Source: Giardia intestinalis
Lineage: Eukaryota
Length of the DNA stretch: 64,000 bases
Reading direction: 5' to 3' (one strand)
Assembly: GCA_000002435.2 (NCBI GenBank)
Contig: CM018791.1
The notes under the pieces were generated by a model. That model was not told the origin of the DNA and did not search any database. It saw only the letters and a program-made list of their open reading frames with translations. The translations under genes and the position numbers were made by a program. Of this stretch, positions 6,158 to 49,613 are shown piece after piece. Position 1 is the stretch's first letter. Every line of letters begins with the position of its first letter.

Positions 6158-8362
6158 ATGTCAGATGCAGATGACGCTACCATCGAGCAGGCTCTCTGCA
6201 CTGAACCACTTGATTTACAGGTGGCCATGCCGCATATTAAACGAATTGTAAGTAAGGATTTCAACGCTCGCGAAAACATTATTGAGCTCCTTCAGCGTAG
6301 AGGGGCTGAGATCCTGCGGAATATCCTCAAAGCAGACGGCCTGCTCAACTCCACTGCTGACTGCTGGAAGCATGTCGTCCTGTTGGCCATACTAATTATT
6401 AAGTACTCGACATCCTCGTCTCTTGTCTACCTCATACAGCTCCTCCCTGACCGAGCGGCGAAGCTGGGTTCTGGGACCGACGGAGAGCATTATGCAGTAA
6501 GGCATATGTCACAGATTTTGGAGTTCTATATCCGCAAGCTTGTCTCTGACTCTATCTCCAGGTTTCCAGTGCCTCCTGAGGGCACAGAAGGAGATTCGTT
6601 GGTTACCTGGAAGACAGAGCTGGCGTACGTTCGGCCAGTGATTGCTCTTCTCCTCGCTGTGATAACCAGCAAGCAGGGCGAGCATGCTAATGTGACGGAA
6701 ATAGAGCCACTTCAAGAACGGGATATGTGCACAGGGTACATCTCTATGTTATCCCTCCTTCTCATATTCGAGGCTGGCAAGCGCACGTTCGTCGAGGCAG
6801 ACGGGTTCACTGTCCTAATGATGGTTGCTGCACAAACTCAGTCCATCCCGGTAGTGACTGCCATTCTGACAGCCTTCCACAGCTGTATTTTCAACCTTGT
6901 CGACAGCGTCAACGAAGAACTGGATGTCCCGGCCGCTGACTCCGCTTCTGGAGATTGCAATCCTAAGCAGACCACAGTGTACAACCTAGTGGTGGATGCA
7001 TTTGCCTTTGTGCGTCCTCACGAGCTTATTGAGTCTGTATATGAGCGCTTCTACCGTCTGCACTACGTACCAAAGCAGCCCATCTTTACCGAGGACCAGC
7101 TGAAGCAGCAGCTCACCGAGCTCACCTTTTCGGTAGTCTTACTGTTTCATGACTGTGCCCTCCCAGAAACAACTGGCTTCGTGACAGGGGAGAATCTGCT
7201 CTTCATTGCGCAATACATAGTTTCGGTTACCAAGGGTGTTAGCTTGTCAAAGCCAGCGCTGTGGCAGTCCGATGGGTCGCTCGCCACGTTTAATGCCAAG
7301 GTCAAGGGAGGATTAGAGGCACTTATGCGGCTGATCAGTTTGCACACAGAAACCCCCACGGCCATTAGGATTCTGATAAACGGATACAACCATGAGACTA
7401 AGGAGCATGATTCAGTGCAGTCCCAAGGCCCTGTTGCGGAGGACAAGTCAGTGGATGTTGAGGGTGGGGAAGAACCTCTCAGGAAGGCTGAGATGCCCGG
7501 AAATATTGACTTTCTCCGAGCTGTGGTTAACGCTGTCGCTGTCACTGACTGCTCAACGCTTGCTGGGACGCTGTTCTCCTTCCTCTCTCTCGTTGCATCG
7601 TACTCTTGCTGCTATAGTCGAAGATTGATAATACCACTGGAGTTTACATCCTATGAGAGGATTCTAAGATGGGTGAGTGCGTATGGCTCCTACATTCTCG
7701 GCGGGCACGCTGAGACGACAAAAATAATCCAGAACATGGAGGATACGTGCCTGGTCCTTGTGTGGCTGGTCGAGAACTCCTCTTCTGACAACGAGGAGGG
7801 TGCAGATATCGAAGAAGTGGCATCTAAGACGCTAACTCGCAATGAAATATGGGCCCGCCTTTCCATCAAGCAGGAGGCCCATGGAGTGCTGATGCTGGCC
7901 ATGGCAATGTCTGTCATCAAAGGTCTTGTGCCCACACTGACTGGTCTATTATCTGTTATCTCGTGCTTCATGGGCACCGATGGCTATTTCGTTAGACTCC
8001 TTACCGTCTTTAAAGAGAAGAAAGTAGAGATATGCAATTTCCTTGTTGATCTCTGTGCCAACCTAAGCAAGCAAGGCGCGTTCTGCTACGTTGTCTGCAA
8101 TAACATACTCAAAGGAATGTCGTCACTTCCAGATGCATTCTCATCGGTTGACGTCAACCAGTTGGCGGACGCGCTTCTCCCCCTGGGCTTCAGCGACGGC
8201 GATGACGACGTTCTGATGAAGATTGTTAACAGTTACGAGGAGATTCCTCCCGTTATAAAGGAATCTTGTAAGAAGATCTTGGCAATCATGGATGCTGTGG
8301 ACGGTGAAGAGATGGTGGCAAGGTCAGAGCCCTATGCCAGCCAGCCTGCAGCCGTTGGATAG
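6158..8362 (+). CDS. hypothetical protein (~734 aa)
   Basis: Track ORF 6122 starts at GTG; the first ATG is 6158 (MSDADDATIEQ). Divergent from the RNAP gene with ~62 bp between starts. AGTAAAT lies 4 nt after the stop. Confidence 0.55.
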   Translation: MSDADDATIEQALCTEPLDLQVAMPHIKRIVSKDFNARENIIELLQRRGAEILRNILKADGLLNSTADCWKHVVLLAILIIKYSTSSSLVYLIQLLPDRAAKLGSGTDGEHYAVRHMSQILEFYIRKLVSDSISRFPVPPEGTEGDSLVTWKTELAYVRPVIALLLAVITSKQGEHANVTEIEPLQERDMCTGYISMLSLLLIFEAGKRTFVEADGFTVLMMVAAQTQSIPVVTAILTAFHSCIFNLVDSVNEELDVPAADSASGDCNPKQTTVYNLVVDAFAFVRPHELIESVYERFYRLHYVPKQPIFTEDQLKQQLTELTFSVVLLFHDCALPETTGFVTGENLLFIAQYIVSVTKGVSLSKPALWQSDGSLATFNAKVKGGLEALMRLISLHTETPTAIRILINGYNHETKEHDSVQSQGPVAEDKSVDVEGGEEPLRKAEMPGNIDFLRAVVNAVAVTDCSTLAGTLFSFLSLVASYSCCYSRRLIIPLEFTSYERILRWVSAYGSYILGGHAETTKIIQNMEDTCLVLVWLVENSSSDNEEGADIEEVASKTLTRNEIWARLSIKQEAHGVLMLAMAMSVIKGLVPTLTGLLSVISCFMGTDGYFVRLLTVFKEKKVEICNFLVDLCANLSKQGAFCYVVCNNILKGMSSLPDAFSSVDVNQLADALLPLGFSDGDDDVLMKIVNSYEEIPPVIKESCKKILAIMDAVDGEEMVARSEPYASQPAAVG

Positions 8363-8365
8363 ACT

Positions 8366-8372
8366 AGTAAAT
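8366..8372 (+). promoter_or_regulatory. AGTAAAT putative polyadenylation signal
   Basis: Matches the Giardia-type AGTRAAY poly(A) signal, immediately 3' of the stop at 8360-8362. Confidence 0.35.
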
Positions 8373-8415
8373 AACCCTGAAAAGCTAGATTTTTTAATCT
8401 CCCGCCTCAGCCACA

Positions 8416-9951
8416 ATGAGCCGCGCCACAGGGGTTCTGTTGGGCCCACATGAGGCTGAGATCAATGGAGAAAGAGTCATAAGCGCTGCGTGCTCCGATG
8501 GAGCGCAATTCAGAAGGCTGAGCATGGCATGGAGCTCGGCAGCAAGATTCCTTTCAGACACTCCTTCTGTACTTCCTCTTGAGAGTATCAATGGCAATCC
8601 GCAAAATCAGTCGATATACATCCGATTTAGGAAGATGAGCGGAGTATCTATGCAAACACTACTTCAACGGCATCAAAGTGCCAACCTCCCCTTCTCAGAG
8701 GAAGTGCTCCGCTCATATGCACTCCAGCTATTGACAGGAATATCTGCTCTCGAACGACTCAATTTCTGCCCGACCGTCTCACTTGATACCATACTCGTCT
8801 CTTCTAGCTTCTCTACCGATCCGTGCAACGCTTCCATGGATGATGCGCTAGACTACGCCGGTCTGCTCATTCACGGAGAGTGCTTCTTAACGTGTTATGA
8901 TCCAATTATTTCGACGGGGAAGAGTACTAGGGACTACGATCTCCACCCCCCTCCTCTGGTGTCTTTTTCTCGTGTTTTTGATGAGCTTTGCAAACTTCAA
9001 AAGCAGGACACATGTGCTGGCAGTGTGCCATATCGTGTGAGCTCCAAACCTGGCTCAGGGTATTCAAGGGAACTGCGGGTGCTCATGCGAGCTTGTTCTC
9101 AGGAGCATTCTGCATTGCGCCCATCTGCATACCATGCTTTGCAGTGGTTTAAACGGATTCATGCTGGGGTTGACCTCAGTTGTGTCAATGGTATTCCGAC
9201 CGTGTTCAGTATTACTCCAAGGGTGTCTCGCTCGCCCAGCCCGGTACGTAGTCCGAGTCCTAGCAGACTCGTCTCCCACCCAGACTATCCCGCACTATTG
9301 GGTAGCCAGCGCTGTCTAAGAGCCTATCTTGATAGTGAGCCTGACAGAAGTCTCGTTGAGGACCTCCTCGAGACGGCTGTTGCAAGAAGAAGTGTGATGG
9401 GGATAACAACTATTTCTGATCATTCAAGAAGGAAACAGGTCTTTGCCACTATCAAGCCTCGGGTGGGTGTTGCCGTTATGCGGGAGACTGCTCTTATGGC
9501 AGCGACCCGTGCTAATAATAGTGAAGCCGTACAACATATCTTAAAGACGTCTCCAGAGCTTCTGTGTTCAATACATTGTGGAGATACTAGTCTGCGGATA
9601 GCATCCAGACGAGGTCTGTTTTCTATAGTCCGCCTGCTGTTAAGTGAGCTTGGCATTCGGAGCCCTGCCGGCTGGACCGCGCTGATGTCTGCTGCACGAC
9701 ATGGTTATGATGACATAGTGAGGCTGTTACTCCCGGAGGCCGGAGCACAGTTACAGGATGGCACATCTGCGTTGATGCTTGCGTGCAGGTATGGCCACGC
9801 AAATTGTATAAGAGAACTGCGTGCCGTGGAGAAGAACCTGACAACAACCAATGGAAGCTCTGCCGTTGACTTCATTGCGGAGTCGTTTCACAACGGTACC
9901 CTGAGTAACGCAACAAGACAGAAGTGTCTAGATGCGCTAGCTGGTGAGTAA
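8416..9951 (+). CDS. NEK-like degenerate (pseudo)kinase domain fused to C-terminal ankyrin repeats
   Basis: ATG verified at 8416. The N-terminal half has kinase-like C-lobe remnants (YALQLLTGISALERL, SRELRVLMRACSQEHSALRPSA) but lacks HRD and DFG. The C-terminal 33-aa ankyrin repeats include TALMAATRANN and WTALMSAARHGYDDIVRLLL. AGTAAAT overlaps the stop. Confidence 0.6.
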   Translation: MSRATGVLLGPHEAEINGERVISAACSDGAQFRRLSMAWSSAARFLSDTPSVLPLESINGNPQNQSIYIRFRKMSGVSMQTLLQRHQSANLPFSEEVLRSYALQLLTGISALERLNFCPTVSLDTILVSSSFSTDPCNASMDDALDYAGLLIHGECFLTCYDPIISTGKSTRDYDLHPPPLVSFSRVFDELCKLQKQDTCAGSVPYRVSSKPGSGYSRELRVLMRACSQEHSALRPSAYHALQWFKRIHAGVDLSCVNGIPTVFSITPRVSRSPSPVRSPSPSRLVSHPDYPALLGSQRCLRAYLDSEPDRSLVEDLLETAVARRSVMGITTISDHSRRKQVFATIKPRVGVAVMRETALMAATRANNSEAVQHILKTSPELLCSIHCGDTSLRIASRRGLFSIVRLLLSELGIRSPAGWTALMSAARHGYDDIVRLLLPEAGAQLQDGTSALMLACRYGHANCIRELRAVEKNLTTTNGSSAVDFIAESFHNGTLSNATRQKCLDALAGE

Positions 9952-9960
9952 ATAGTATCG

Positions 9961-11580
9961 TCACGTAGAGACCATAGTAGTGAGCGTAACTGGATTGGTG
10001 GATAGTCCGTGCTTTGTTGTCTTTCTTTTCTTAACAAGTATGATTGCTAGTGTAATGACGGTAGCAGCAAGAAGTAGCACAGCAAGTGGCAACGTGATCG
10101 ATAGAATAAGCGTTGTCCTGTTAGTACTAAGCGGAGGAAAAGCAAAGGGAGAATCAGGATCATTATCCAAACATACCACAGAGGTCTCAGAAGATGATAC
10201 CAGACACTGCTTGCATCCCTTTATACCCTTCAGAGGTCCCGAGATAGTAGAATTATCGCAGCGAATGCAACCATGGACAGAGCTGGTCCAAAAGTATCCT
10301 GGTGCACAAAGATTGCACCCACTAGGCGACGAATCCTCGCAAGAGAGACAACCAGGTGCACACTGACTGCAGTGCACCTCCTCAGAGTCGACTGAAACTT
10401 GCGTGGAGTAGTATCCGTTAGAGCAGAAAGTACATATGTCCGGACTTGATGGACAAGCAAAGCAGCCAGTCATGGTACACTTAATGCACCCGCCGTCACT
10501 AGTCCGATGGTAGCCACACGTACAAGCTCGACAAGTCCCATAGGCGGCAGGATCTATTCGCTCTGCGGCGGCGCATACTAGTTTTCCCGGGGCATATAAT
10601 GAACTATAACACCCTCCTTGATGCAGAAAGTACCCCAGGGCACATTTAAGGCAGAGACCTTTGTCTGTTTGAGCACATGCAGAGATCTGCTGACCTGAAG
10701 TAGAAACGCACCTCCCATCGAGAGGAAAGAAGCCCTGGCTGCACCTAGAGCAATACCTTGCCGATCCCAGGATAGCATGACATTCCACGCACGGTCCTAC
10801 GGCGGCTTCGGCGCACTCTGGAACACAACGACCCATAGTGAGCACGTTAGAATCAGTCCTATATATGAAATATCCGTCAACACAGGAGGTACACTGATCT
10901 TCGATTGCTCGTTCACAAGAGTAACAATTTGCTGGACAGAGATCGCATGTATTTGTGATAGGATTTGCTGCATAGCCGATGGGGCAGCTGTGCAAACATA
11001 TTCTGCGTGCCGGCTGTAGAAAGTATCTTTTCTCACACAAAACGCAAGTGGCTCCAGAATCAGTTCCGTTGTTCTCGCAAACACAATTTGCTGGACAACC
11101 GCCCACTTCTAGACAGTTCCTCCCATCTAGGGAAAGACCAAATGGTATTTCGCACGCGTTGCAAATGTCAGCGTTATCGGTGCAAAGAGCGCAGCTGCTG
11201 ACCTTGCAAAGGATACACCCTTGTGCTCTGTTGCCTTGGTCTAGTCCATATCCAGCGATGCACGTACACTGTCTAGTATAGTAATTGGACGATGCACCGA
11301 TTCCACAGGAGGCCACGCACGATCTTCCATTAATGCTAACCATATAATCATACTCAGAACAATCTAGACATACAGGGGCTGTATCAGTGGAAGAGGGTAA
11401 CATGCAGCGAGAGCATCCTCTTATACCAGCGTATCCATGAACTGGCACTTCAGTACTACAAGAGATACAATATCCCCTGTCATTACCTTGAACTGCCAAG
11501 AAAGACGTACTATTGCACGACGTACATGAGGCATCGTCTTGACCATCACACGTAGTACAGGATTGGTGGCACGACGACAT
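9961..11580 (-). CDS. high-cysteine membrane protein (HCMP/VSP-like CXXC-rich ectodomain, one C-terminal TM, ~25-aa cytoplasmic tail)
   Basis: Dense CXXC and CXC motifs run through the ORF. A C-terminal TM (LILSITLPLAVLLLAATVITLAIILV) is followed by a KKRK tail, not the VSP CRGKA ending. The track start at 11604 is TTG; the first ATG is 11580 (MSSCHQSCTTC). No signal peptide is evident. Confidence 0.55.
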   Translation of the reverse strand: MSSCHQSCTTCDGQDDASCTSCNSTSFLAVQGNDRGYCISCSTEVPVHGYAGIRGCSRCMLPSSTDTAPVCLDCSEYDYMVSINGRSCVASCGIGASSNYYTRQCTCIAGYGLDQGNRAQGCILCKVSSCALCTDNADICNACEIPFGLSLDGRNCLEVGGCPANCVCENNGTDSGATCVLCEKRYFLQPARRICLHSCPIGYAANPITNTCDLCPANCYSCERAIEDQCTSCVDGYFIYRTDSNVLTMGRCVPECAEAAVGPCVECHAILGSARYCSRCSQGFFPLDGRCVSTSGQQISACAQTDKGLCLKCALGYFLHQGGCYSSLYAPGKLVCAAAERIDPAAYGTCRACTCGYHRTSDGGCIKCTMTGCFACPSSPDICTFCSNGYYSTQVSVDSEEVHCSQCAPGCLSCEDSSPSGCNLCAPGYFWTSSVHGCIRCDNSTISGPLKGIKGCKQCLVSSSETSVVCLDNDPDSPFAFPPLSTNRTTLILSITLPLAVLLLAATVITLAIILVKKRKTTKHGLSTNPVTLTTMVST

Positions 11581-11914
11581 GTTAAAGTAGGCTCTCGAGA
11601 CCAAATTACTAGGTAGCCGTATCCTAAGAAATTAAAAGCTGATTGTTACGTAGAATTGTGTACATTAACATCAAGTAGCTGCATTGTATTACTGTAGCAT
11701 TGGTGAGAACATCTCTTGGATTTTTAGCGCTGCAGAGAAGGCCCGGGATCTGGTTGGTAAGATAACCTTTGTCCAGTGCAGTAGAAATGTCTTATTCATC
11801 AAAACACTGTGGTCGCGAGGAAGGTCTTGGTCAGTACAGATGCTCACTTTGTGCAACATAATCAAGAACCCGATTCAGTTTACAGTTGGACGAGAGCAAA
11901 TAAAAACTCCTAAT

Positions 11915-12472
11915 TTACTTGCAGCACCCGCCGCCCAGGCAGCAGAGCGCCGCGGCGTACATGGCTGTGAAGACTACCACATCGACGAGCCCGAGGACCA
12001 CGCCCGCCCACTTGTTGGAGGGGCCCTCAAGAAGGCCGCGGGGGCCCGCCGGGACGATGGCCGCGATGACGACGAAGGCGACGATGCAGCCCAGAATGAG
12101 CCCGAGGAACTTCAGCCCGCAGCTGTCCTTGTGGATGAAGAACGAGCCGATGACCACGGTGAAGGCCCAGCCGGCCGCGAGGGAGACCATCGACAGCCCG
12201 CTGTAGCCGCCCACGGTGTTGCTGAACGACTTATCGTTACCATTGTTCCCGTTCTTCGCCAGCACGGAGGTGATCAGGTACGTGAGGAAGTCCGCGAGCG
12301 AGGGGTACCCGACCCCGACCCCGATGCGGAACGCGTACTTGAGGAAGCAGTCGAGGCACCCGCAGCACCCGCAGCAGCAGCAGCTGCAGCAGCAGAGGAC
12401 GCACTTGAGGATCTGGACGACGATGCTGTAGATGATGCAGATCACGGCCACAATCATTATGAAGAGGAAGAG
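11915..12472 (-). repeat. inverted repeat arm 1 (558 bp, 100% identical to 14093..14650)
   Basis: Checked directly by reverse-complementing 12421-12480 against 14091-14150. The ORF track also shows identical proteins and identical off-frame ORFs at 11919..12206/14359..14646 and 12216..12431/14134..14349. Confidence 0.85.
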
Positions 12473-12676
12473 CTTGCCCTCATTTTTATCAGTAAGACAC
12501 TGTATGGGATTTTTCCCATTACTGTTTCCCTTACTACCATTACTATCGAAACACGTTTTCAGCGTTTCTCCAATTGTTTTAGGATTTCTCCCCGGAAACC
12601 CTACAATCAGAGCATAAACAATCATCGGAACGCCCACACAGATGAGGGCAATGACGTCCTCATCGCAGCAGCACAT
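11915..12676 (-). CDS. poly-cysteine polytopic membrane protein, paralog A (253 aa)
   Basis: ATG verified at 12674-12676 with AT-rich upstream (aatttaaaATG). Four to five hydrophobic TM segments. Cys clusters MCCCDED, CCCSCCCCGCCGC and a C-terminal CCLGGGCCK. Codons are strongly GC3-biased. Confidence 0.6.
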   Translation of the reverse strand: MCCCDEDVIALICVGVPMIVYALIVGFPGRNPKTIGETLKTCFDSNGSKGNSNGKNPIQCLTDKNEGKLFLFIMIVAVICIIYSIVVQILKCVLCCCSCCCCGCCGCLDCFLKYAFRIGVGVGYPSLADFLTYLITSVLAKNGNNGNDKSFSNTVGGYSGLSMVSLAAGWAFTVVIGSFFIHKDSCGLKFLGLILGCIVAFVVIAAIVPAGPRGLLEGPSNKWAGVVLGLVDVVVFTAMYAAALCCLGGGCCK

Positions 12677-13126
12677 TTTAAATTCCTTCGAACAAACCGA
12701 GTAAATAGATTTTGACGTATTGACGGTGTAAGGAACTTATGCAGATGCTTGTCTAATGGCACGTGTCCACAACTAGATTCAATATAGTCAGCTATATTTT
12801 CAAGTTTAGCGGCAACCCTTAAAAAACTATGCATGTAAACAAATTACACCAACAATCATAAATACTCGGATGGCTTCAGTGGTCCCGGGGGGCAAGAGGT
12901 AAGGCATTGATACAGACTGTTTCGTTGCTAGTGTACGATGCGACGAGCGTGATATAACAAACGTACACCTGGATCTAAGAGGCCTGAATCTCTCCGTCTA
13001 ATCGCACTCTTTGAACATAGATTTTCCTCCAGACACTTAAGTTTTCGCTTTGAAACGGACAGGTCTGCATTCAGCTGCTGATGTCGAAGTGTGGTGTGTT
13101 GCAGGGCACTCTCCTGCCGTCAAGCC

Positions 13127-13543
13127 TCACCCTCCACTTTTCCAGTTAGCTGTCCATCCCAAGTCTGATTTCGGAAAGTATACCTTGTTGCAGTACCTCA
13201 GAGCTGTTTGCAGTAAACCTTTTGCTGAATTGGGGTCACGGCTTTCGAACTGTGGAACCAGTCTTTCATCTGCGAGGGTCTGCTGAGGGCTGCGCCCCGG
13301 CTGTTCTGCGCACGCTCCCCTGCGGAGGCGGTGGCCGGGGGCGCACCGGTGGCAGTACTCCGGGACGGCGCAGACCGCGCAGTGCTCGACGGCGCAGGGC
13401 CCGGGGGTGCACGCCCGCCCGCCGTCTGCAGGGACCAGCTCGCCCTGGCAGCGCAGGCAGGCGGCGCCCGCGCACCGCTCGCAGCCGGGGACCGTCACCC
13501 CGCAGGGCAGGGCCGCGAGGAGGCGGAGGAGGCGTCCGGGCAT
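13127..13543 (-). pseudogene. VSP/HCMP-like cysteine-rich ORF fragment (CXXC repeats, no TM or CRGKA tail)
   Basis: From the internal ATG at 13543, MPGRLLRLLAALPCGV reads like a signal peptide. It is followed by CERCAGAACLRCQ, CAVEHCAVC and CHRC motifs. It lies in a ~75% GC tract where long ORFs occur by chance in every frame, so a coding call is weak. Confidence 0.25.
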
Positions 13544-13900
13544 CGGCGTGTTTTCGGCCAAAAATCTGGCGATGTCTACGGCGCCCGCGACCTGGGACAC
13601 GCACTGGGCGCGCCACTGGCGCCTGGCCTGGGACTACGTCCTCGGGGCCGCCGTGGCAGGGCTCCTCCTGGTGTGCGGGGTGCGCTCCCCGGGCCAGGCA
13701 GGGGACCCGGACCCCCGGCGCAGCCCCCGCAGCCCCCGGCGCCGCAGCTCCTTCGAGGGCCGGGCTCCCCCGCGCCGGCGGGAGACGAGCGACCCCGACG
13801 TCGACTGCTCCGACTAGCCCGGGGCACGCGAATCCCATAAAGTGAACGTCAACGCTTTTCCGGCACAATCACCGGGTAGTTTATTGATGGAGAAAAATAA

Positions 13901-14650
13901 ATGTGCTGCTGCGACGAGGACATCATCGCCCTCATCTGCGTGGGCATCCCGATGATCGCGTACGCGGTGGTAGTCGGCTTTCCGGGGAGAGACCCCAGCA
14001 AGGTTGGAGCGGCATTGAAAGAGTGTCTCAGTAACAAAAATGGTAAGAATCTTCTGGCCTGCATCAGTGAGAAGGGGGATAACTACGGCGGCCTCTTCCT
14101 CTTCATAATGATTGTGGCCGTGATCTGCATCATCTACAGCATCGTCGTCCAGATCCTCAAGTGCGTCCTCTGCTGCTGCAGCTGCTGCTGCTGCGGGTGC
14201 TGCGGGTGCCTCGACTGCTTCCTCAAGTACGCGTTCCGCATCGGGGTCGGAGTCGGGTACCCCTCGCTCGCGGACTTCCTCACGTACCTGATCACCTCCG
14301 TGCTGGCGAAGAACGGGAACAATGGTAACGATAAGTCGTTCAGCAACACCGTGGGCGGCTACAGCGGGCTGTCGATGGTCTCCCTCGCGGCCGGCTGGGC
14401 CTTCACCGTGGTCATCGGCTCGTTCTTCATCCACAAGGACAGCTGCGGGCTGAAGTTCCTCGGGCTCATTCTGGGCTGCATCGTCGCCTTCGTCGTCATC
14501 GCGGCCATCGTCCCGGCGGGCCCCCGCGGCCTTCTTGAGGGCCCCTCCAACAAGTGGGCGGGCGTGGTCCTCGGGCTCGTCGATGTGGTAGTCTTCACAG
14601 CCATGTACGCCGCGGCGCTCTGCTGCCTGGGCGGCGGGTGCTGCAAGTAA
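13901..14650 (+). CDS. poly-cysteine polytopic membrane protein, paralog B (249 aa)
   Basis: ATG verified at 13901 (gagaaaaataaATG). The N-terminal ~64 aa have diverged from paralog A. From LFLFIMIV to the stop it is identical to paralog A. Confidence 0.6.
   Translation: MCCCDEDIIALICVGIPMIAYAVVVGFPGRDPSKVGAALKECLSNKNGKNLLACISEKGDNYGGLFLFIMIVAVICIIYSIVVQILKCVLCCCSCCCCGCCGCLDCFLKYAFRIGVGVGYPSLADFLTYLITSVLAKNGNNGNDKSFSNTVGGYSGLSMVSLAAGWAFTVVIGSFFIHKDSCGLKFLGLILGCIVAFVVIAAIVPAGPRGLLEGPSNKWAGVVLGLVDVVVFTAMYAAALCCLGGGCCK
14093..14650 (+). repeat. inverted repeat arm 2 (558 bp, 100% identical to 11915..12472)
   Basis: Identity starts at codon 65 of paralog B and stops at its TAA. Flanking 3' sequence diverges immediately after the stop. 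Confidence 0.85.
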
Positions 14651-14662
14651 ACGGCGCCCGGC

Positions 14663-16183
14663 CTACTGCTCGGTCTCCTCGTAGATCGTGATCTCGGAGC
14701 AGTCTGCGCACCGGAGCCCGCTGTCCTCCGAGACGGGGACCTGGAAGATCACCCTGCAGAAGCGCATGAACCGGTTTGCGTACGCGTCGCTCGGGACCGC
14801 GGAGATCCCGTCCTTGTCTGCGCACAGCCCCTTCGCCCTGCGCTCGACGTGCTTGATGCTCCTGAACTCGGTGAGGAAGTCGACGACGCCCATGTGGAGG
14901 ACCCGGTAGTAGAGGGCCGACCCCCGCAGCGTGGGCCCCAGGGCGCAGGCGGGGGAGAACGCGTAGAGCCCGCCCTCCTCGCTGTGGAAGATGTCGCTGC
15001 TCTGGATGGCCGCCTCGAACGTGAAGCGGCGCCGGAAGACCTCCCGGAGGTACTCGTCGGGGGGCAGCGCGGCGAGGAACGCGGACGTCCCCCGGCTCCC
15101 CCCGGCCGCGATGCTGTGGCCCACCGGGGGCAGCATGTCCGAGACGTCCCGCGTGCTGAGGATGGTTCTCGGGGAGCTGGCAGCAAGAAGGCGGTCGTAG
15201 AAGCGCTGCACAGGGGTCTTGGCATCTTCGCTGTGGACTTTATCGGCTTCGATAGTGTTGTTGGTTGGCGTGCCCGGGGCCGCTGCGGGATCATCGTCAC
15301 GCTCTCTGTCCTGAATACACGGGATATCGTCCGTGAGACCCAAGAGTAGGCTGTAGTCTATCAGGTTGTGCTGCTTGAGCCAATCTGAGTCTGCCTTGAG
15401 CTGATGGATCAGGAGCCGCCGCCGGAGGGTTGTGAGGTAAATGTAGTTCTCCATATTTGTGTCCTTCAAGGTCTTTTTGGCCCGATCATCAGGAGCATGC
15501 AGCTTTGTGTGCCGGCCAACCCAGGAGCCCTTCAGGTCATACCGCTCAACTATCTTTCGAGGAGTGGCGAAAAGGTTTGGTATGATAATAAAATGCTTAC
15601 CATGCTTGGAGGTCCTATGTGGCGCTGAAGAAGTGCCGGGCTTACCGGTAGTGATAGTGAACATTGCGTAGATCCGGATGAGAAGTGAGCTAGGGTTATC
15701 TAGAAGGTGCCGCCCGTATGATGCGCAGATCTTTAGCATGAGAACAAGCTCCTTGGGCTTTAGTTGCTTAATAAGATACTTACCAGACTCGCTGAAAATA
15801 AAGAATGTGGGGCTTTTACCGGGCGACTTCATTAGCCCAGGGTGGCTGCATGTGACAAACTCTTTTAGCAGCGACTGAGGATTGAGGGAATCTTTTGTCA
15901 TTAGCGTTCTAAACATAGACGCATGATAGAAGATGGCAGTCAAATCGCTTCCAAGTGGCGCACTGGTGTTGGGATCCACCTCACTGCCGGGTAAAGCCAA
16001 TACTGTCATAAGGCCTTCTGTCTCGGAGCTGTATGGGTTCTCACCAGTCTGAGTTTGAGTTTCAATAACTTTTCCAATAGCCTGTTGCACGCGCCGTACA
16101 TGTGGATAGAGCGAACTCTGAACAGTCAGTTGCTCGCCAGAATATGGCCGTTGGTCATACTCCAACTTCCCCAACAGAACCAT
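14663..16183 (-). CDS. phosphatidylinositol phosphate kinase (PIP5K/PIPK family)
   Basis: ATG verified at 16181-16183 (aaaaaATG context). PIPK signature NLIDYSLLLGL is present, along with YDLKGSWVGRH and IIIPNLFATPRK. The C-terminal half (~14750-15300) is very GC-rich, unlike the N-terminal half. Confidence 0.8.
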   Translation of the reverse strand: MVLLGKLEYDQRPYSGEQLTVQSSLYPHVRRVQQAIGKVIETQTQTGENPYSSETEGLMTVLALPGSEVDPNTSAPLGSDLTAIFYHASMFRTLMTKDSLNPQSLLKEFVTCSHPGLMKSPGKSPTFFIFSESGKYLIKQLKPKELVLMLKICASYGRHLLDNPSSLLIRIYAMFTITTGKPGTSSAPHRTSKHGKHFIIIPNLFATPRKIVERYDLKGSWVGRHTKLHAPDDRAKKTLKDTNMENYIYLTTLRRRLLIHQLKADSDWLKQHNLIDYSLLLGLTDDIPCIQDRERDDDPAAAPGTPTNNTIEADKVHSEDAKTPVQRFYDRLLAASSPRTILSTRDVSDMLPPVGHSIAAGGSRGTSAFLAALPPDEYLREVFRRRFTFEAAIQSSDIFHSEEGGLYAFSPACALGPTLRGSALYYRVLHMGVVDFLTEFRSIKHVERRAKGLCADKDGISAVPSDAYANRFMRFCRVIFQVPVSEDSGLRCADCSEITIYEETEQ

Positions 16184-16313
16184 TTTTTAATCATCCTCCG
16201 ACGCTTTTCCTTTCGATCGGATGCCAATATTATCCTATTTACTAAGATAGTACGAGCCATGAGAGGTATAGTGGCTGCGAATCCTATATATGTAAATAGA
16301 AAATAAAGAACTA

Positions 16314-16673
16314 ATGAGCACAGGACATAACGAGAAAGAGCACTCAATCACAGTAGACCTTCACGAGGAAATAGAAAACTTCATGAACAATGTGATCTCC
16401 CTAGAGGTGGAGCTTGCCTCCCACATTCGAGGACTGGATCTCATGTCTCACCAGCTAAACAAGATCATTGACAATCTCACTGGGTGTAAGACGCAGGAAG
16501 CAGAGTATGACAGTGACACCACAGATAATGGAGAGCCCCCGCGTCCCAAATACTCCATGGAAGGATTTGAGAAGCGTGTACAAGAGGTGATGGAAGAAAT
16601 AAATAAAGACGCCGTTGCGCTAAGGCATCTGCGTGAAGAAGCCATCCAAATCCGTGAGAATTGCTTGGCGTAA
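16314..16673 (+). CDS. small acidic coiled-coil protein (119 aa), hypothetical
   Basis: ATG verified at 16314 after atatatgtaaatagaaaataaagaactaATG. Heptad-like acidic sequence. Fits exactly between two minus-strand genes. Confidence 0.5.
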   Translation: MSTGHNEKEHSITVDLHEEIENFMNNVISLEVELASHIRGLDLMSHQLNKIIDNLTGCKTQEAEYDSDTTDNGEPPRPKYSMEGFEKRVQEVMEEINKDAVALRHLREEAIQIRENCLA

Positions 16674-16680
16674 GGATGCT

Positions 16681-19605
16681 CTATGCAAATCTGGCTAAAA
16701 GGCTGCGGGTTCCTAATCGAAGTTGATCTGGTGTTGGACAGTTGGCAAAGTCATATGTGCGTGGACTGGATACCGAATCGTCATCTTGTTTGGAATAATA
16801 TGTAATAAAGTAGTACAAGTGTGATGGGTGTTCGAACTCTGTCAGGCATTGGTGCAGCTGCTCAAAGCCCTCCTCCGTGGGCTCTCCTCTCATCAAGAAG
16901 CAAATACCTATAATACCTACAACTACGTTCATGCCCGCCCTTAGCTTTTGTAGCAGATGCTGATGGTTAGCAGACAGCTGTTGCGCATCACGAAGCTGCA
17001 GCTCGTAGTAGGACAAGAGAGCATCAACCTTCTCTCCTACATTCGTACACCGTGTAGCCGACAGGACGCTCTGACCCTGATTGAAGGTAGCCTGAGTAAG
17101 AAACCCAATACTTCCCAAAATGGACTGGTAGGAGAATTGAGAGTACTTAGGCAAGAGCTTAGTGAAGTCCACATCAAATGGCTGCGTGCCAAATGGAATC
17201 CGTGGAATGACTTCCGTGACAAGTTGCAGGACATCAGCAACAAGTTCCGAGGTTACACCCAAGCGTAGGTTGAGCTTCTCCAAGGCGTTGCTCAGCTCCA
17301 CACATTGGCCGTAGATATCCAGGAGTTTGTCAAGTATTAGCTCTTCGCTATAGTCTATACCCGTAATTTGGAAGAAGCTCTTGTATCCCAGAAGAAACTC
17401 TATCCCAAGGGGTAGTATTTCCAGAGCAGTTGCCGTAATGTGAAGCTGCATGTCCTGGAAAGAAACAACTACCTGGCCGTGGACTCCTGCAATTATGCAC
17501 ACAGCATTCGGCGACTTCTTCCCCACCTCAGAGAGGATAGATGCAGAGAAGGGCCGCTTAAGTAGGAGCTCATGAAGGGTAGAAAAAGACTCCTTAGGGC
17601 TTATCTTTAAAGAGACCCTTAAGGGTAGATCGGTGGCTTTCGGAAAAACAGAGCTCTCACGAACTAGAGCACTCGAAAACAATGGAAGGGATAGGCTGCG
17701 CGTTACAACAAAGGGTACTGACAGAAGACAGTCCTCTGACGGGATCTTTACATTGGCACAGATGGAAAGATGCAGAGATGGTGAGACAAAGAAGGAAAGA
17801 TCGGAGATCCCTAGCTTGATGTAGACAGTAGCCGGTGCTCCGCTGCCAAGATGCACTATTGTACTTGTTATTGATCTGAAGCATTCTCTATCCCCAAGTT
17901 GAATAAAAGAAGACGGTGGGCCTGCTAGTGGTGCATGGATATCTTTGTTATCAGAGGAAAGAAAAGAGGGATACTCTGCAAGGGACGATAGGTCGGTGAT
18001 GGGCTCCTCATAGCTTCCGCAGCCAGTAACTCCGAGCGTTGCCGAAGGCAATCGACCAGATACAGCTTTAAGTGTTAGTTCTATTATGGTGTAATTTGTG
18101 TTGCCATCCCGATAAAACTTACTGATGCCGCAGTTAACAGTAATGAGCTCATCCAAGCCTGTGCGCATGCTCGCATGCTGGGCTTTTAAAGCGCTTACTC
18201 GCTTCTGGGCTTCCTCCATCAAGGTCTTCGTTACAGCTTGTTTCGGGATAGCAATAGGTGAGAGAAGAGAAGGAAGCAAACTACTGGGTCTTCCATCAAC
18301 GTCCAAGGGGTTGGTCCCAAGGAGGTGAACCTGTATAGATCCACTGCGGGACTGGACCACAAACAAGCCATCCTGGCTACACATCTTTGGAGGACTACGA
18401 GGTACAAACAATTGGGCCATGTATTGCGGAGTATGAACGCCCACAGGCTCGTCGATGCTATCCGATAGCCTAGACGTCCATCTAAGTTCACCTCCGCGGA
18501 AGAAGTGAAGTGTCCTATTGGAGTCTAAGACAACAATTGACGAAATCTCAGGCAAATTGATCCTTCTCTGCCGAATCGGCTGGGAGGTGGACTCCTTTTC
18601 CTTGACTGGAGCTCTGAATAAGGCCATGCTGAATAAGAGCCCATCTGGGAGCTGATTTTCCACGGAAAGCAATCCTGTAGATGCGTTGACAAGTGTTATA
18701 CCGTGTGTGTGCAGAGCGATGACCTCGCCTTCCAGTCCTGAGTCTACTCCGAAGCAGCGGCCGTAGGAAAGTTGCTGAATCCGCTCACCAATGACATAAG
18801 TCCATTGTGGCTTCAGCGGAGAAGAGCGGACGTCCTTGCTTGATTGTGGCACACCGCGCAAAAGGGGGTTTCCCTCATCATTAAATGTACTTGCAGGTCC
18901 AGTTGCATCATGCTCGGTACTACTATTCCATGCTTCACCTCCAGTATCATTCATAACATCTGCACAGGAAAAAGATACAATCGTGTAATCAAACGTGGCT
19001 ATGACCAATGAGTTAGTCCCCGGGCAAAAGGCCATCGGAGTAGGGAAACTGTACATAAGTCCTAGACGGTGGGTGGCCATCACTCTACGGGCACAGATGT
19101 GTAGTATGCCATCGTCTGTCCTTACTGCAAGCCTACTATGATAGAGGGCAGCGCCGGCCTCAGTACTAGGACTTGGCAAGGTGATGACACATGTGGAAAT
19201 TATGTACCTGCTAAAGTGCACCGTACTCACCAGCTCTAAGCCTATATCGCCGTCTTGCAATCTTTTAGGAGTGTAGATACCAATCGAGTGGGGATGAACT
19301 ACCGCCAACTCCAAATTTTCGGGCTTGCTGGCCGCCTCGTCAATGAGCGGGGATGGACCAGTGAAGAAGCCCAACTCAAGGCCCAGAATGGGGTTTTCTG
19401 TCTCGCTAGAAAATACTGTGTTCGTGAGAGTCTCGGACTCGTTACTCTCAGTCCGCAGCACCGTGAGCCGCCCCGCCAGGGATCCGACGACAATCTGAGC
19501 CGAGTTGTTCTTGGCGCGCATCAGATTAAGGACTGCCACTGCCCTAGCATCCACACGCTCCTCCAAGGCGTGAGACCAGCAGGGAACCGTTGAAAAGAGA
19601 GACAT
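16681..19605 (-). CDS. BBS9: BBSome subunit BBS9/PTHB1-like protein (974 aa)
   Basis: ATG verified at 19603-19605. The N-terminal pattern MSLF..W..(30 aa)..IVVGS..G.L....PILGLELG.F.....LAVVHP...IY mirrors the PTHB1 N-terminus as I recall it (MSLFKARDWW...IIVGSFMGYL...PVLQVEVGKF...LAVLHSRKL). Assignment is from memory only. Confidence 0.45.
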   Translation of the reverse strand: MSLFSTVPCWSHALEERVDARAVAVLNLMRAKNNSAQIVVGSLAGRLTVLRTESNESETLTNTVFSSETENPILGLELGFFTGPSPLIDEAASKPENLELAVVHPHSIGIYTPKRLQDGDIGLELVSTVHFSRYIISTCVITLPSPSTEAGAALYHSRLAVRTDDGILHICARRVMATHRLGLMYSFPTPMAFCPGTNSLVIATFDYTIVSFSCADVMNDTGGEAWNSSTEHDATGPASTFNDEGNPLLRGVPQSSKDVRSSPLKPQWTYVIGERIQQLSYGRCFGVDSGLEGEVIALHTHGITLVNASTGLLSVENQLPDGLLFSMALFRAPVKEKESTSQPIRQRRINLPEISSIVVLDSNRTLHFFRGGELRWTSRLSDSIDEPVGVHTPQYMAQLFVPRSPPKMCSQDGLFVVQSRSGSIQVHLLGTNPLDVDGRPSSLLPSLLSPIAIPKQAVTKTLMEEAQKRVSALKAQHASMRTGLDELITVNCGISKFYRDGNTNYTIIELTLKAVSGRLPSATLGVTGCGSYEEPITDLSSLAEYPSFLSSDNKDIHAPLAGPPSSFIQLGDRECFRSITSTIVHLGSGAPATVYIKLGISDLSFFVSPSLHLSICANVKIPSEDCLLSVPFVVTRSLSLPLFSSALVRESSVFPKATDLPLRVSLKISPKESFSTLHELLLKRPFSASILSEVGKKSPNAVCIIAGVHGQVVVSFQDMQLHITATALEILPLGIEFLLGYKSFFQITGIDYSEELILDKLLDIYGQCVELSNALEKLNLRLGVTSELVADVLQLVTEVIPRIPFGTQPFDVDFTKLLPKYSQFSYQSILGSIGFLTQATFNQGQSVLSATRCTNVGEKVDALLSYYELQLRDAQQLSANHQHLLQKLRAGMNVVVGIIGICFLMRGEPTEEGFEQLHQCLTEFEHPSHLYYFITYYSKQDDDSVSSPRTYDFANCPTPDQLRLGTRSLLARFA

Positions 19606-19750
19606 AGTTCTCTGCCCAGGGCCAAAACGAGAAAAGATGAAAAAATATCACATCTGTACCCCAATGTGTAAAAATGTCACGCCATAATGCAAAACCTAAA
19701 TTTTATTTTAAATTCATTTTCAATGCTGCCCGAAAAGCGAGGACGACTCG

Positions 19751-20230
19751 ATGACGCACAGCCAGGGGTACAGGTGTAAGACGCGCTACTGCTTCGCACG
19801 CAAGTTCCGTAGACACGGAATGGCCAACCTGACGACATACAACCGCGTCTACAAGCTCGGCCAGTACGTCAACATCAAGGTGAACGGGGCTTATCACAAG
19901 GGGATGCCCCACCGCTACTACAACGGGCGCACAGGCACAATCTTCAACATCGGGCCGCGTGCCCTCGGTGTCCAGATCCAGAAGCGCGTCCGCGGCCGCA
20001 TCATGCTCAAGCGCATCAATGTGCGTCTGGAGCACGTTCACCCGTCAGACTGCAGGAAGAACCACCTGGAGCGCGTTGCCGCCAACGACGCTGCCCGCAG
20101 GCTCGCGAAGGAGACCGGCCAGCCTGTCCCATGCCTCAAGAGACAAAACGCCCTTCCCAGGGCCGCACACGTGGTCAGCATAGCATCTGCCATCGACATC
20201 ACCCCACTCAAGTATGACGGAGTTTTCTAG
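19751..20230 (+). CDS. RPL21: 60S ribosomal protein L21e
   Basis: MTHSQGYRCKTRYCFARKFRRHG...KRINVRLEHV is colinear with eukaryotic L21e (MTHSKGYRRGTRY..FSRKFRKHG..KRINVRIEHI), and its 159-aa length is typical. AGTAAAT is at 20241-20247. Confidence 0.9.
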   Translation: MTHSQGYRCKTRYCFARKFRRHGMANLTTYNRVYKLGQYVNIKVNGAYHKGMPHRYYNGRTGTIFNIGPRALGVQIQKRVRGRIMLKRINVRLEHVHPSDCRKNHLERVAANDAARRLAKETGQPVPCLKRQNALPRAAHVVSIASAIDITPLKYDGVF

Positions 20231-20240
20231 GCTCCGACGA

Positions 20241-20247
20241 AGTAAAT
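20241..20247 (+). promoter_or_regulatory. AGTAAAT putative polyadenylation signal for RPL21
   Basis: Lies 11 nt after the TAG stop at 20228-20230. Confidence 0.35.
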
Positions 20248-20261
20248 GGCCTGCGGGGCGG

Positions 20262-22076
20262 CTAGTGGAGGCTGGCCTTCCACCGGTTCCTCGACGCGCT
20301 CTCACCGCGCTGCTGGTTTGGGCCGAGGACTACATTCTGTGCCTTCGTGACTTGCTTCCGGGAAGATGGACGGACGATGTGCTGCTCCGGTATGGCTGAG
20401 TCGTTAATGATATTGAACCGCCGCCTTGGAGCCGCCGCAGCCGATTGTGCAGAGTACGCACGTGCCTTGAAGCTGTGAGGAGCGGTCGAGGTGGCAAAGA
20501 AGCTCGGGGATGGATCGTTGGGGTGCATGGACGGAAGAGCAACTCCTGGGGCTGTTAGTGAATTCGGGTTTAGCTCCCCTTCTGGTGTATTTTGAATGCA
20601 CGAAAACGAAGCTGCATACCTACTGAAGGACGCCTCGAGGTTATCTAGTTCGCGATATTGAAGCTGCATCACCTCTAGTGAAGCGGGCCCGGCGGCTGTC
20701 CTTGCTCTGAGCTGGTTAGGTCTGATGGAAGCCCCAGGGAGAAGGCTCTCAGGTGCTATGTCCGATGTGTCTGAGGAGTGATCTGGCAAAGCGTGTTCTT
20801 GGTCATAGCTGTGCACAGAGCTTTCTGCCAGTGTGCTGGATGTGTTGCTTCTGGTGATGTAAACATGTCCCGAACCCTCTGGGCACGAGGCTGGTAGTAT
20901 AGCAGGGTCCTGCTGGCCCCGCGGTGGCTTACTGCTTGTGGTGTGCTTCTGAATTGATGCCGATGTTTTGCCTAGTGAGTTACTCGCCAGAGCACTCATC
21001 TGGAGCCCCGAGCTCCCTTCCTTTGTAGAAACAACGCTGGGACCCACTGGTGTTACGGTAGAGATAGCTGGTTTGGTGAAGGTTGGCGGCGGACTGTGGG
21101 AAAGCTCTACAATCATGGGCTCCACAGTTGGTATAGACTGGATTGGCCCTGCATGAGTCTCCTTTTTCTGACCTGCAACGGACCGTGCACCTGGCGCACA
21201 GAAAGATATAATCGGAGGCCTGCGGTACTCCCGCTGCATCTCAGTAGTGGATGATGGATTGCTCGAAGAAACAGATGTCCTAGCGCACGAATCATGCAGC
21301 CGCTGAAGCTCACCAGCGGTTTCAGCATCAGTGTGGGTAACGACCTGGGTATTCTTTGTACATGCAACTTCCCGAGCGATGGAGCAGGGGTCTCTGTATA
21401 TGGTGAGATCTATTGAGTCATCACATACTTGTGAACTTTGAGAATCTAGCGTTCCACCATCAGTGAGGTGAAAGGTAGCAGATCCTGGGAAAAGGGAACC
21501 GCCGTGAGACCGTGCCCTCTCATATGATGTCCTACGCTCAAGACGACTAGTTCCCCGACCATCAGCAGATCTTTGTGCCAAAAAGGAACTGATAAGGGAG
21601 CAGCCGCTCTTTTGTTGTGCCGCAGACTGCTTCTCTGCCCCTAGTGTGTACCTGCTCAGCACCCGAACAGACACCGGCCGCGGTACACGCGTACGTACTT
21701 CTGGCTTGACATACTCGTCTCCTATGTTGCACAGGGTGGCAGCCTGTGGTAGATGTATGGATCTGTCTCTATCCCATGATGACTTGGGGCCGTCTGCAAT
21801 GCTCAAAAGCACTCTCTGCGGACGGATGTTGGCGCCATCTGGCACATTTGGCAGTAGGTATTCCATACCGCGCACAAATGCACGGCCAGCGTTAGTCTTG
21901 GACGGCAGAATGGAGATGTGGTCCCGCATTTCATTACACAGAATCGGCTGTCCTTTCTTTGGAGCATCAATCTTATCTGATCCTATAGGGCTGTTAACGT
22001 ATGAAATTTTCCTCAATTTTCCAGTCCTATTGCTGGTAGTGCGTAGAGCTTGTGTTGCGATCACTCCTGGATCCAT
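20262..22076 (-). CDS. Ser/Pro/Thr-rich low-complexity hypothetical protein (~604 aa)
   Basis: Track start 22172 is TTG. The first ATG is at 22074-22076 (MDPGVIATQ), preceded by gatttaaaaat. Confidence 0.5.
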   Translation of the reverse strand: MDPGVIATQALRTTSNRTGKLRKISYVNSPIGSDKIDAPKKGQPILCNEMRDHISILPSKTNAGRAFVRGMEYLLPNVPDGANIRPQRVLLSIADGPKSSWDRDRSIHLPQAATLCNIGDEYVKPEVRTRVPRPVSVRVLSRYTLGAEKQSAAQQKSGCSLISSFLAQRSADGRGTSRLERRTSYERARSHGGSLFPGSATFHLTDGGTLDSQSSQVCDDSIDLTIYRDPCSIAREVACTKNTQVVTHTDAETAGELQRLHDSCARTSVSSSNPSSTTEMQREYRRPPIISFCAPGARSVAGQKKETHAGPIQSIPTVEPMIVELSHSPPPTFTKPAISTVTPVGPSVVSTKEGSSGLQMSALASNSLGKTSASIQKHTTSSKPPRGQQDPAILPASCPEGSGHVYITRSNTSSTLAESSVHSYDQEHALPDHSSDTSDIAPESLLPGASIRPNQLRARTAAGPASLEVMQLQYRELDNLEASFSRYAASFSCIQNTPEGELNPNSLTAPGVALPSMHPNDPSPSFFATSTAPHSFKARAYSAQSAAAAPRRRFNIINDSAIPEQHIVRPSSRKQVTKAQNVVLGPNQQRGESASRNRWKASLH

Positions 22077-22181
22077 ATTTTTAAATCTTCTAGACCCTCC
22101 CAAGCAGAGCCCAAAACCCGAAAGTGTGTCTCTGGCTCCCAAAGAGCCAGGTGATAGAGATTTACACGACAAACTAGATAA

Positions 22182-23849: not shown

Positions 23850-23969
23850 CAATTATGTGCTTTTCTATCTGTGCTATGCAAATGTAATTAAGTATGAAAT
23901 TTGTGTTTTAAATACATTTCAACTATTTTTACACAATCTCAAAACACAAAAGGAAACCCAGAGCGACGA

Positions 23970-49483: not shown

Positions 49484-49536
49484 ACAAACAGAAAGAAGAA
49501 ATATCACGTGCATGCTGCTGCCTGGCCCTGACGTGT

Positions 49537-49610
49537 GGCGTTGTAGCGCAGTGGTCCAGCGCATCGGGCTCATAACTCGAGGGTCGGAGGTTCGATCCCT
49601 CCCGACGCCA
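49537..49610 (+). tRNA. tRNA-Met (anticodon CAU), elongator type
   Basis: Cloverleaf folded by hand. Acceptor GGCGUUG/CGACGCC has 7 bp including one G-U. D-arm GCGC-AGTGGTCCA-GCGC. Anticodon stem UCGGG/CUCGA with loop CU-CAU-AA. Variable loop GGGTC. T-arm GGAGG-TTCGATC-CCTCC. Discriminator A, with no encoded CCA. G1:C72 and the lack of three G:C pairs at the base of the anticodon stem argue against an initiator. Confidence 0.85.
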
Positions 49611-49613
49611 TGT

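Follow-up and report, generated by a model that had tools for sequence, protein, structure and literature searches.

How two genes of one genome can be almost identical over their last two thirds while their first thirds have diverged widely is the question raised by a locus of Giardia intestinalis. The locus lies in a 64,000-nucleotide stretch of contig CM018791.1 (GenBank assembly GCA_000002435.2), referred to here as the window, and holds two paralogues that point away from each other: copy A, of A-type, with 253 amino acids (aa), on the minus strand (11915..12676), and copy B, of B-type, with 249 aa, on the plus strand (13901..14650). Genes of the locus were matched by exact-sequence look-up in the records of Giardia intestinalis WB (ATCC 50803), where copy A corresponds to KAE8303016.1 / XP_001710015.1 and copy B to KAE8303017.1 / XP_001710016.1; in the WB annotation both are named only "Transmembrane domain-containing protein". 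A preliminary description of this DNA, which had rightly looked to the diplomonads for relatives of the proteins, had reported two head-to-head open reading frames (ORFs) with cysteine clusters, and both the frames and the clusters are as it described them. We propose, with a probability of roughly 0.8, that a single explanation covers the locus: an ancient paralogue pair, gene conversion of the C-terminal portions, inversions between the repeated segments, and GC-biased repair.

A repeat search of the window located two inverted arms of 559 nucleotides each, separated by 1620 nucleotides. The left arm (11914..12472, minus strand) consists of codons 69-253 of copy A, its stop codon and one further nucleotide, and the right arm (14093..14651, plus strand) ends in AGTAAA. 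Base-by-base comparison and blastn found the arms identical at 558 of 559 positions, or at 557 of 558 over the slightly shorter span of the preliminary description. That description had called the 558-bp repeat perfect; the repeat is where it was said to be, but it contains one synonymous mismatch, C at 12314 against T at the partner position 14251 on the complementary strand (GGG versus GGA, both Gly), which sits within a CCCGAC mini-repeat. Comparison of the window with itself, a check that had been suggested earlier, recovered the inverted pair and no other repeat of at least 40 nucleotides anywhere in the 64 kb, and the match between the arms is therefore not due to chance. The N-terminal stretches of about 65 codons have diverged, as had been noted, with a nucleotide identity of about 61-69% that varies with the treatment of gaps and a net indel of four codons. 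On the 3' side of the arms the flanking sequences of the two copies are unrelated.

The two portions of the genes carry very different amounts of silent change. Between copies A and B of WB, codons 1-32 show 1.21 synonymous substitutions per synonymous site (dS) and 0.085 nonsynonymous substitutions per nonsynonymous site (dN), whereas dS is 0.007 and dN is 0 in the arm. By this measure, which is one of sequence comparison, the N-terminal divergence is old and has been under purifying selection. Trees were built from twelve copies taken from WB, DH (sub-assemblage A2), P15 (assemblage E), GS_B and BAH15c1 (assemblage B), plus a more divergent homologue (L008). The N-terminal tree places the A-type sequences (WB_A and DHA2_151130) apart from the B-type sequences (WB_B, a proxy for the third WB copy P0040, DH_B', DHA2_151104, P15 and GS_B P0005); the types separate across assemblages, and so the duplication is older than the assemblage split. 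In the C-terminal tree, by contrast, sequences group by lineage, with the copies of assemblage A 97.5-99.8% identical and the two GS_B paralogues 89% identical. Arms A and B of WB differ at 1 of 558 positions, the DH arms at 17 of 558, and WB and DH arms at 11-17 of 558. Because the DH arms differ from each other at 17 positions, the homogenisation seen in WB is lineage-specific and recent.

Variable sites tabulated for six copies form a mosaic. The sequence TAAT at alignment columns 657-660 occurs in DHA2_151130 and DHA2_151104 and is absent from B', while the WB arm is closest to the P0040 proxy near its start (columns 231-309) but follows the A-type copy of DH at an indel of ACG and at a site beside it (columns 446-452). 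Columns 231-309 and 439-466 are mixed in WB. Such sharing of patches implies several conversion events, in both directions. Paralogues of one genome are closer to each other than to their orthologues, the two phylogenies are discordant, and patches are shared among copies, which is the pattern of interlocus conversion. The suggestion of recent gene conversion or concerted evolution in the preliminary description is strongly supported by the contrast in dS, by the discordant N-terminal and C-terminal trees and by the mosaic patches. Judged from these alignments, it is only the C-terminal two thirds of the ancient gene pair that evolve in concert.

A single recent partial duplication, in which the 558-bp 3' segment was pasted once with neither ongoing exchange nor any link to inversion, would also leave near-identical arms with two sharp boundaries, and for the WB pair taken alone one event would be enough. 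This is nevertheless quite unlikely when the other genomes are considered. The same two boundaries are found in DH, where the arms are 97% identical, and the C-termini group by assemblage in A and in B. Different pairs of copies share different patches in DH and in WB, for which several events are needed, and to saturate third codon positions with G and C, as described below, biased repair must have acted many times over or during a long period.

The third WB copy, P0040 (248 aa, KAE8302978.1), lies outside the window but in the same 1.97-Mb record. The XP_ accession numbers of P0040 and GL50803_112368 are consecutive, in that order; the latter is a 157-aa fragment that corresponds to the 3' end of the phosphatidylinositol-4-phosphate 5-kinase gene (PIP5K), and from the numbering we infer that P0040 is adjacent to this fragment. 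In the explanation that we favour, the locus holds two anciently duplicated, divergently transcribed paralogues that encode a cysteine-rich membrane protein specific to Giardia, with five or six transmembrane (TM) helices. The last 558 bp of either gene belong to a dispersed repeat with three copies, P0040 beside the PIP5K 3' fragment supplying the remaining one. Homology-directed repair would repeatedly copy one unit onto another by non-crossover gene conversion, keeping the C-terminal two thirds nearly identical within each lineage, and the latest such event in WB would have left the one synonymous difference. Conversion would be confined on the 3' side by the end of homology one base past the stop codon and on the 5' side by the identity of 61-69%.

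The sharp 3' edge does not mark the end of a conversion tract. The preliminary description, which took the sharp boundaries as signs of conversion, had placed the 3' end of identity immediately after TAA, and identity in fact stops one base past TAA. This homology edge (stop codon plus one) falls at the same base in the DH copies (L004 10748 and L001 8051), and being common to WB and DH it must be a junction left by an old duplication. DH likewise shares the 5' boundary at LFLFIMIV, which lies within the coding sequence and marks the start of the anciently diverged N-terminus, where conversion was presumably halted by the identity of only 61-69%. The sequence AGTAAA at the end of the repeat overlaps the stop codon of both copies (14645-14652 and 11913-11920) and is followed by a pyrimidine in both. 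The Giardia poly(A) signal has the consensus AGTRAAY, which the terminal AGTAAA resembles in sequence.

Comparison with DH adds structural differences to the divergence data. A single DH contig, AHGT01000002.1, holds two arrangements, L004 and L001, about 76 kb apart. In L004 the B-type gene DHA2_151104 (plus strand) is followed by a VSP-like gene, an ankyrin-repeat gene, a 746-aa gene and Rpb2, and positions 10193-20747 align in reverse to 12472-1916 of the window, which is its left flank. The VSP-like gene of the left flank thus adjoins the B-type DHA2_151104 in DH, in the orientation opposite to that of WB. The order in L001 is a 264-aa paralogue (minus), a PIP5K fragment (plus), a B-type gene (minus), the spacer, the A-type DHA2_151130 (plus) and PIP5K (minus); the B-type gene is an intact 248-aa frame, B' (8052-8798, minus), without a call in the DH gene list. 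Positions 7538-10760 of L001 align in reverse to window 15164-11914, and positions 9999-20759 align forward to window 13899-24650. Relative to the shared right flank, the DH spacer unit is flipped and a segment of about 76 kb is inverted, with breakpoints inside the arms.

On the evidence of two assemblies, there appear to be inversions between the human isolates WB (A1) and DH (A2). The preliminary description had pointed to the repeat as a possible cruciform and as a potential substrate for inversion; the latter agrees well with the opposite orientation of the DH spacer and N-termini and with an inversion of about 76 kb that has both breakpoints in this repeat family. From time to time, a crossover between two inverted units would invert the DNA between them, and two steps would turn the WB order into that of DH. 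In the first, a crossover between the A and B arms would flip the A N-terminus, the spacer and the B N-terminus together. In the second, an inversion of about 76 kb would take place between two B-type modules sharing about 1.35 kb of homology, which the first step would have placed in inverted orientation. Genes would stay intact in every product, because the arms are interchangeable. The local orientation of WB is probably ancestral, because P15 (assemblage E) has a B-type gene beside PIP5K, as WB does. The assemblage B loci L003 and L007 were considered as synteny outgroups and set aside, because the VSP-like genes that flank them share no more than about 33% identity with the gene next to the WB pair. 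In a nanopore study of WB, Pollo et al. arrived at 162 predicted inversions (PMC7048089); two neighbouring locus numbers looked for in the supplements of that study were not found there, and no predicted inversion was linked to this locus.

Both the near-identity of the arms and the difference in orientation could in principle have been made by assembly, if the arms in truth differ, or exist in one copy only, and collapse, short-read polishing or a mis-join produced what is seen. Several observations lend weight to this and count against our explanation. The structural difference between WB and DH is a comparison of two assemblies; that of DH, which we take to be 454-based, crosses repeats that are 97-99% identical, and a mis-join inside them could have occurred. 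Short-read contigs of P15 and BAH15c1 and a contig from ENA (L010, at the arm end) stop at or near these genes. Exact-protein look-ups returned no contig for copy A and only short Logan contigs for WB P0016 and P0040, and the DNA of P0040 is represented in our comparisons by a proxy, Logan contig L005 (SRR14213831, 2847 bp, compared with window 13326-16175). This contig encodes P0040 exactly and runs on into full-length PIP5K; outside 13672-14584 it shows 100% identity with WB. Short reads from the P0040 copy and from the PIP5K locus were probably joined in it across the shared repeat, which would make it a chimera. A third isolate with WB-like orientation was considered as its source and rejected, given its WB identity outside that interval and its exact P0040 protein.

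An artefact is all the same unlikely. The exact proteins of both copies exist under both XP_ and KAE accessions, which we take to stem from the 2007 Sanger and the 2020 PacBio long-read assemblies of WB, respectively, an agreement at the protein level. The two N-termini differ, as do the two flanks, and all are unique; the head-to-head pair occurs independently in DH (L001), and the A-type gene with its spacer is present in an ENA metagenome contig. The one retained synonymous mismatch speaks against simple collapse, and diagnostic differences set the three DH arms apart, within reach of reads only a few hundred bases long.

The explanation of conversion and inversion between repeat units gains a further line of evidence from base composition. 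Mean GC content of the window is 49.8%. The GC content at third codon positions (GC3) is 0.93-0.94 in the arms (0.94 in the left arm), 0.44 in the 68 N-terminal codons of copy A (12473..12676, minus strand; a single-copy segment with MCCCDED, the first TM helix and a variable loop), 0.75 in the 64 N-terminal codons of copy B (13901..14092, plus strand; a multi-copy segment shared with WB P0040 and two DH copies) and 0.43-0.58 in eleven other genes of the window. Within PIP5K, a maximum-likelihood change point falls after codon 339, where GC3 rises from 0.57 to 0.98 (twice the log-likelihood ratio 119, support interval 334-342), and the duplicated 3' segment of this gene starts at codon 340. 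That segment is 513 bp long (codons 340-506; 14652..15164, minus strand; GC3 0.98) and has a duplicate in DH, a fragment gene of 157 aa. For copy A the change point was placed at codon 65 (support 65-75), close to codon 69, where the arm starts. The 264-aa paralogue, which conserves the same protein region, serves as a control and has a GC3 of 0.5-0.6 over most of it.

Silent-site GC enrichment is thus confined to the repeat tract, and its boundaries coincide with those of the tract. We read the GC3 steps as the outcome of GC-biased repair of conversion heteroduplexes, which would have driven third positions to 94-98% G/C inside repeated DNA only. Selection might be invoked instead, with codon bias for high expression and purifying selection on the membrane core in place of biased conversion. 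The C-terminal protein sequence is indeed highly conserved across the family, the region of a ribosomal protein L21e gene (about 19900-20350; identified from DH) is also GC-rich, and another GC3-rich island lies at convergent gene ends at about 49100-50050. Purifying selection, however, leaves synonymous differences in place, and dS drops from 1.2 in codons 1-32 to 0.007 in the arm. Codon-usage selection cannot account for a step from 0.57 to 0.98 within one gene, PIP5K, that coincides exactly with the edge of its duplicated segment, and the 264-aa paralogue keeps the same protein region without such enrichment over most of its length. Selection is accordingly very unlikely as the cause.

Three observations weigh against repair bias in the repeats as the full account of the GC3 steps. 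Polarisable differences among the copies are too few for weighing weak-to-strong against strong-to-weak fixations, and GC3 is already saturated. The island at 49100-50050 surrounds a tRNA-Met gene (49536-49611) and has no repeat within the window; the genes that flank it, 46532-49483 (plus) and 49614-51092 (minus), are convergent, and their 3' ends reach a GC3 of up to 0.85-0.96. Repeats may not be the sole cause of GC3 islands, or this one may be repeated elsewhere in the genome. Finally, PIP5K of P15 shows the same GC3 step, while the duplicated fragment is known here from WB and DH only. For Giardia, the literature searched mentions GC-biased conversion only in a suggestion about subtelomeric ribosomal DNA (rDNA).

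What the two genes encode is a cysteine-rich membrane protein. The preliminary description did not recognise the family and thought it possibly undescribed. A Pfam search of copies A and B found no family above the cut-off, a fold comparison gave no informative match, and the named members are all from Giardia; the family had, however, already been annotated in generic terms in the published WB genome. Membership in DUF5362 was rejected (copy B scores 15.1 bits, E 0.022, below the gathering cut-off of 25 bits, and copy A has no match), as was membership among the VSP or high-cysteine membrane proteins (HCMP; PF03302, CXXC repeats, a single C-terminal TM helix), which neither copy matches, the neighbouring gene at 9961-11604 doing so with E 7e-35. 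Homologues of copies A and B, at 53-98% identity, come from G. duodenalis assemblages and sequencing runs. A profile search of 1.84 billion representative proteins returned 17 proteins, among them a G. muris orthologue (TNJ26955.1) and the distant paralogues GL50803_0012830, GL50581_921 and GMRT_12676. Distant paralogues of 264-267 aa (L001 6335-7129, minus; L002; L006) have conserved neighbours in assemblages A and B, and in DH the 264-aa paralogue lies about 400 bp from the PIP5K fragment. A literature search by protein accession found no paper. The family is annotated but uncharacterised, and Giardia-specific, reaching as far as G. muris.

Copy A has 25 cysteines in 253 aa. Its hydropathy profile contains five strong hydrophobic segments and one weaker one, and an AlphaFold2 model has six long helices, so that the earlier count of four to five TM helices was slightly low. 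The cysteine clusters are at residues 2-4, 92-110, 186 and 245-252, that is, at the N-terminus, after TM2, after TM4 and at the C-terminus; 11 cysteines within 16 residues (CCCSCCCCGCCGCLDC) directly follow a hydrophobic helix, and further juxtamembrane clusters are present. A six-TM topology would put all of the clusters on one side of the membrane, which would fit the heavy S-acylation suggested in the preliminary description; as predicted from its sequence, the protein is most likely a polytopic six-TM protein with cytosolic, S-acylated cysteine clusters. Two points detract from this prediction: confidence in the AlphaFold2 model is modest (predicted local distance difference test 64.8, predicted template-modelling score 0.58), and our search found no experimental evidence on acylation, expression or localisation of the family protein. 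With its cysteine run after a hydrophobic helix and its further juxtamembrane clusters, the protein is comparable to cysteine-string and other multiply S-acylated proteins (CSP/DNAJC5, SNAP25); the Giardia protein differs from them in being polytopic rather than peripheral and, with no Pfam match, in lacking a J or SNARE domain. Giardia encodes nine DHHC acyltransferases (PMC4109852), and no Giardia palmitoyl-proteome was found in a literature search.

A bolder set of claims can be stated jointly: that the GC3 steps are the first direct footprint of strong GC-biased conversion in Giardia, that the repeats actively drive structural polymorphism within assemblage A, in the form of the small flip and the 76-kb inversion, and that the protein is a Giardia-specific, heavily S-acylated six-TM scaffold. 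We hold this combination tentatively, at somewhat short of even odds.

The remaining features of the locus were examined for genes and signals. To the right, PIP5K (KAE8303018.1; 14663..16183, minus strand; Pfam PF01504, E 8e-60) is convergent with copy B, with 12 bp between the stop codons (14650-14663); because these are so close, the 3' ends of the two genes, and probably the transcripts too, abut or overlap. To the left, the unique flank carries a VSP-like high-cysteine membrane protein gene (9961..11604, minus strand; Pfam VSP), whose C-terminal tail differs from the CRGKA motif of VSPs. The frame as called starts at TTG, and the true start is probably an internal ATG. Antisense ORFs run across both arms (11684-12715, plus, 343 aa, and 13814-14434, minus, 206 aa); they are most likely by-products of the near absence of A and T at third codon positions and not genes.

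The spacer falls into two parts by composition, one of lower GC content (12677..13279, about 40-54%) and a GC-rich block of about 600 bp upstream of copy B (13280..13900, plus strand, 66-82% in a genome with a mean of 50%) that is co-duplicated with the B-type genes in DH (L004 9398-10000). AT-rich, initiator-like sequences directly precede the ATG of copy A (AATTTAAAATG, on the strand of the gene) and that of copy B (AAAAATAAATG), and by analogy with known Giardia initiators these are putative promoters. Overlapping ORFs of 136-207 aa occupy the two strands of the GC-rich block, and one of these is cysteine-rich with CXXC motifs. The long spacer ORFs had no homologues, Pfam families or Rfam match and are treated as by-products of base composition. 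A 157-aa cysteine-rich ORF (13127-13600, minus) was considered as a VSP remnant and rejected, as it has no homologue and no Pfam match, and a Flp_C match in a spacer ORF is noise, scoring 13 bits where the cut-off is 25. Scans of the locus for Rfam families, tRNA genes and tandem repeats gave nothing relevant, and homologue and Pfam searches of the ORFs revealed no recombinase or retroelement remnant in the spacer. A site-specific switch for phase variation was also discarded: there is no recombinase, the arms are 559 nucleotides of coding sequence, and a flip recreates the same two genes.

These results bear on the long-standing question of recombination in Giardia. At this locus, homology-directed exchange among dispersed copies happens often enough to wipe out synonymous divergence inside a sub-assemblage, and isolates of A1 and A2 appear to differ by rearrangements of tens of kilobases that it has caused. 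Should the GC3 steps reflect biased repair, GC3 islands could be used genome-wide as a map of past exchange, a tracer of homologous exchange read from sequence in an organism in which sexual or parasexual recombination is disputed. Additionally, there are practical consequences for comparative and typing work. Repeats of this kind break short-read assemblies, as contigs of P15, BAH15c1 and metagenomes that end at or near them illustrate, and they can produce false single-nucleotide polymorphisms or false breaks in synteny. A Giardia-specific and very cysteine-rich family that lacks functional annotation is, moreover, a reasonable candidate for tagging and acylation studies.

The closest known parallel is in the same genome. 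Inverted duplicated pairs account for 38 VSP genes of WB, with 12 pairs arranged tail-to-tail and 7 head-to-head (Xu et al. 2020, PMC7000408), and a VSP-like gene adjoins the pair formed by copies A and B. Unlike VSPs, these copies have no Pfam VSP match, no extracellular CXXC repeats and no CRGKA tail, and set beside the VSP pairs only their 3' 558 bp are homogenised, the N-termini being anciently diverged. With interlocus conversion in mammals and Caenorhabditis (PMC2720389, PMC3966223) the locus shares similarity of paralogues within a lineage, sharp intragenic tracts and discordant phylogenies. It departs from those cases in that Giardia is tetraploid and binucleate with an unresolved sexual cycle, that the tract edges here are duplication junctions, and that GC3 saturation is extreme (0.94-0.98).

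The rearrangements resemble inversions produced by non-allelic homologous recombination (NAHR) at inverted segmental duplications, with repeats at both breakpoints, intervening DNA inverted across isolates and intact genes at the breakpoints; they differ from the usual NAHR inversions in that a single three-copy family serves a pair of nested inversions (about 2 kb and about 76 kb), and in being known here from a comparison of assemblies. GC-biased conversion in rDNA (Escobar et al. 2011), so far as its citation in PMC10123126 describes it, similarly has GC enrichment confined to frequently converting DNA, whereas the repeat in Giardia is interspersed, low in copy number and protein-coding, and the enrichment begins within a few codons of its edges. 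Interlocus conversion, NAHR inversion and GC-biased conversion are textbook processes, documented unusually cleanly at this locus. What the locus adds to them is the GC3 steps at repeat edges, the two-step model for inversion between A1 and A2, and concerted evolution restricted to the C-terminal two thirds of a gene pair.

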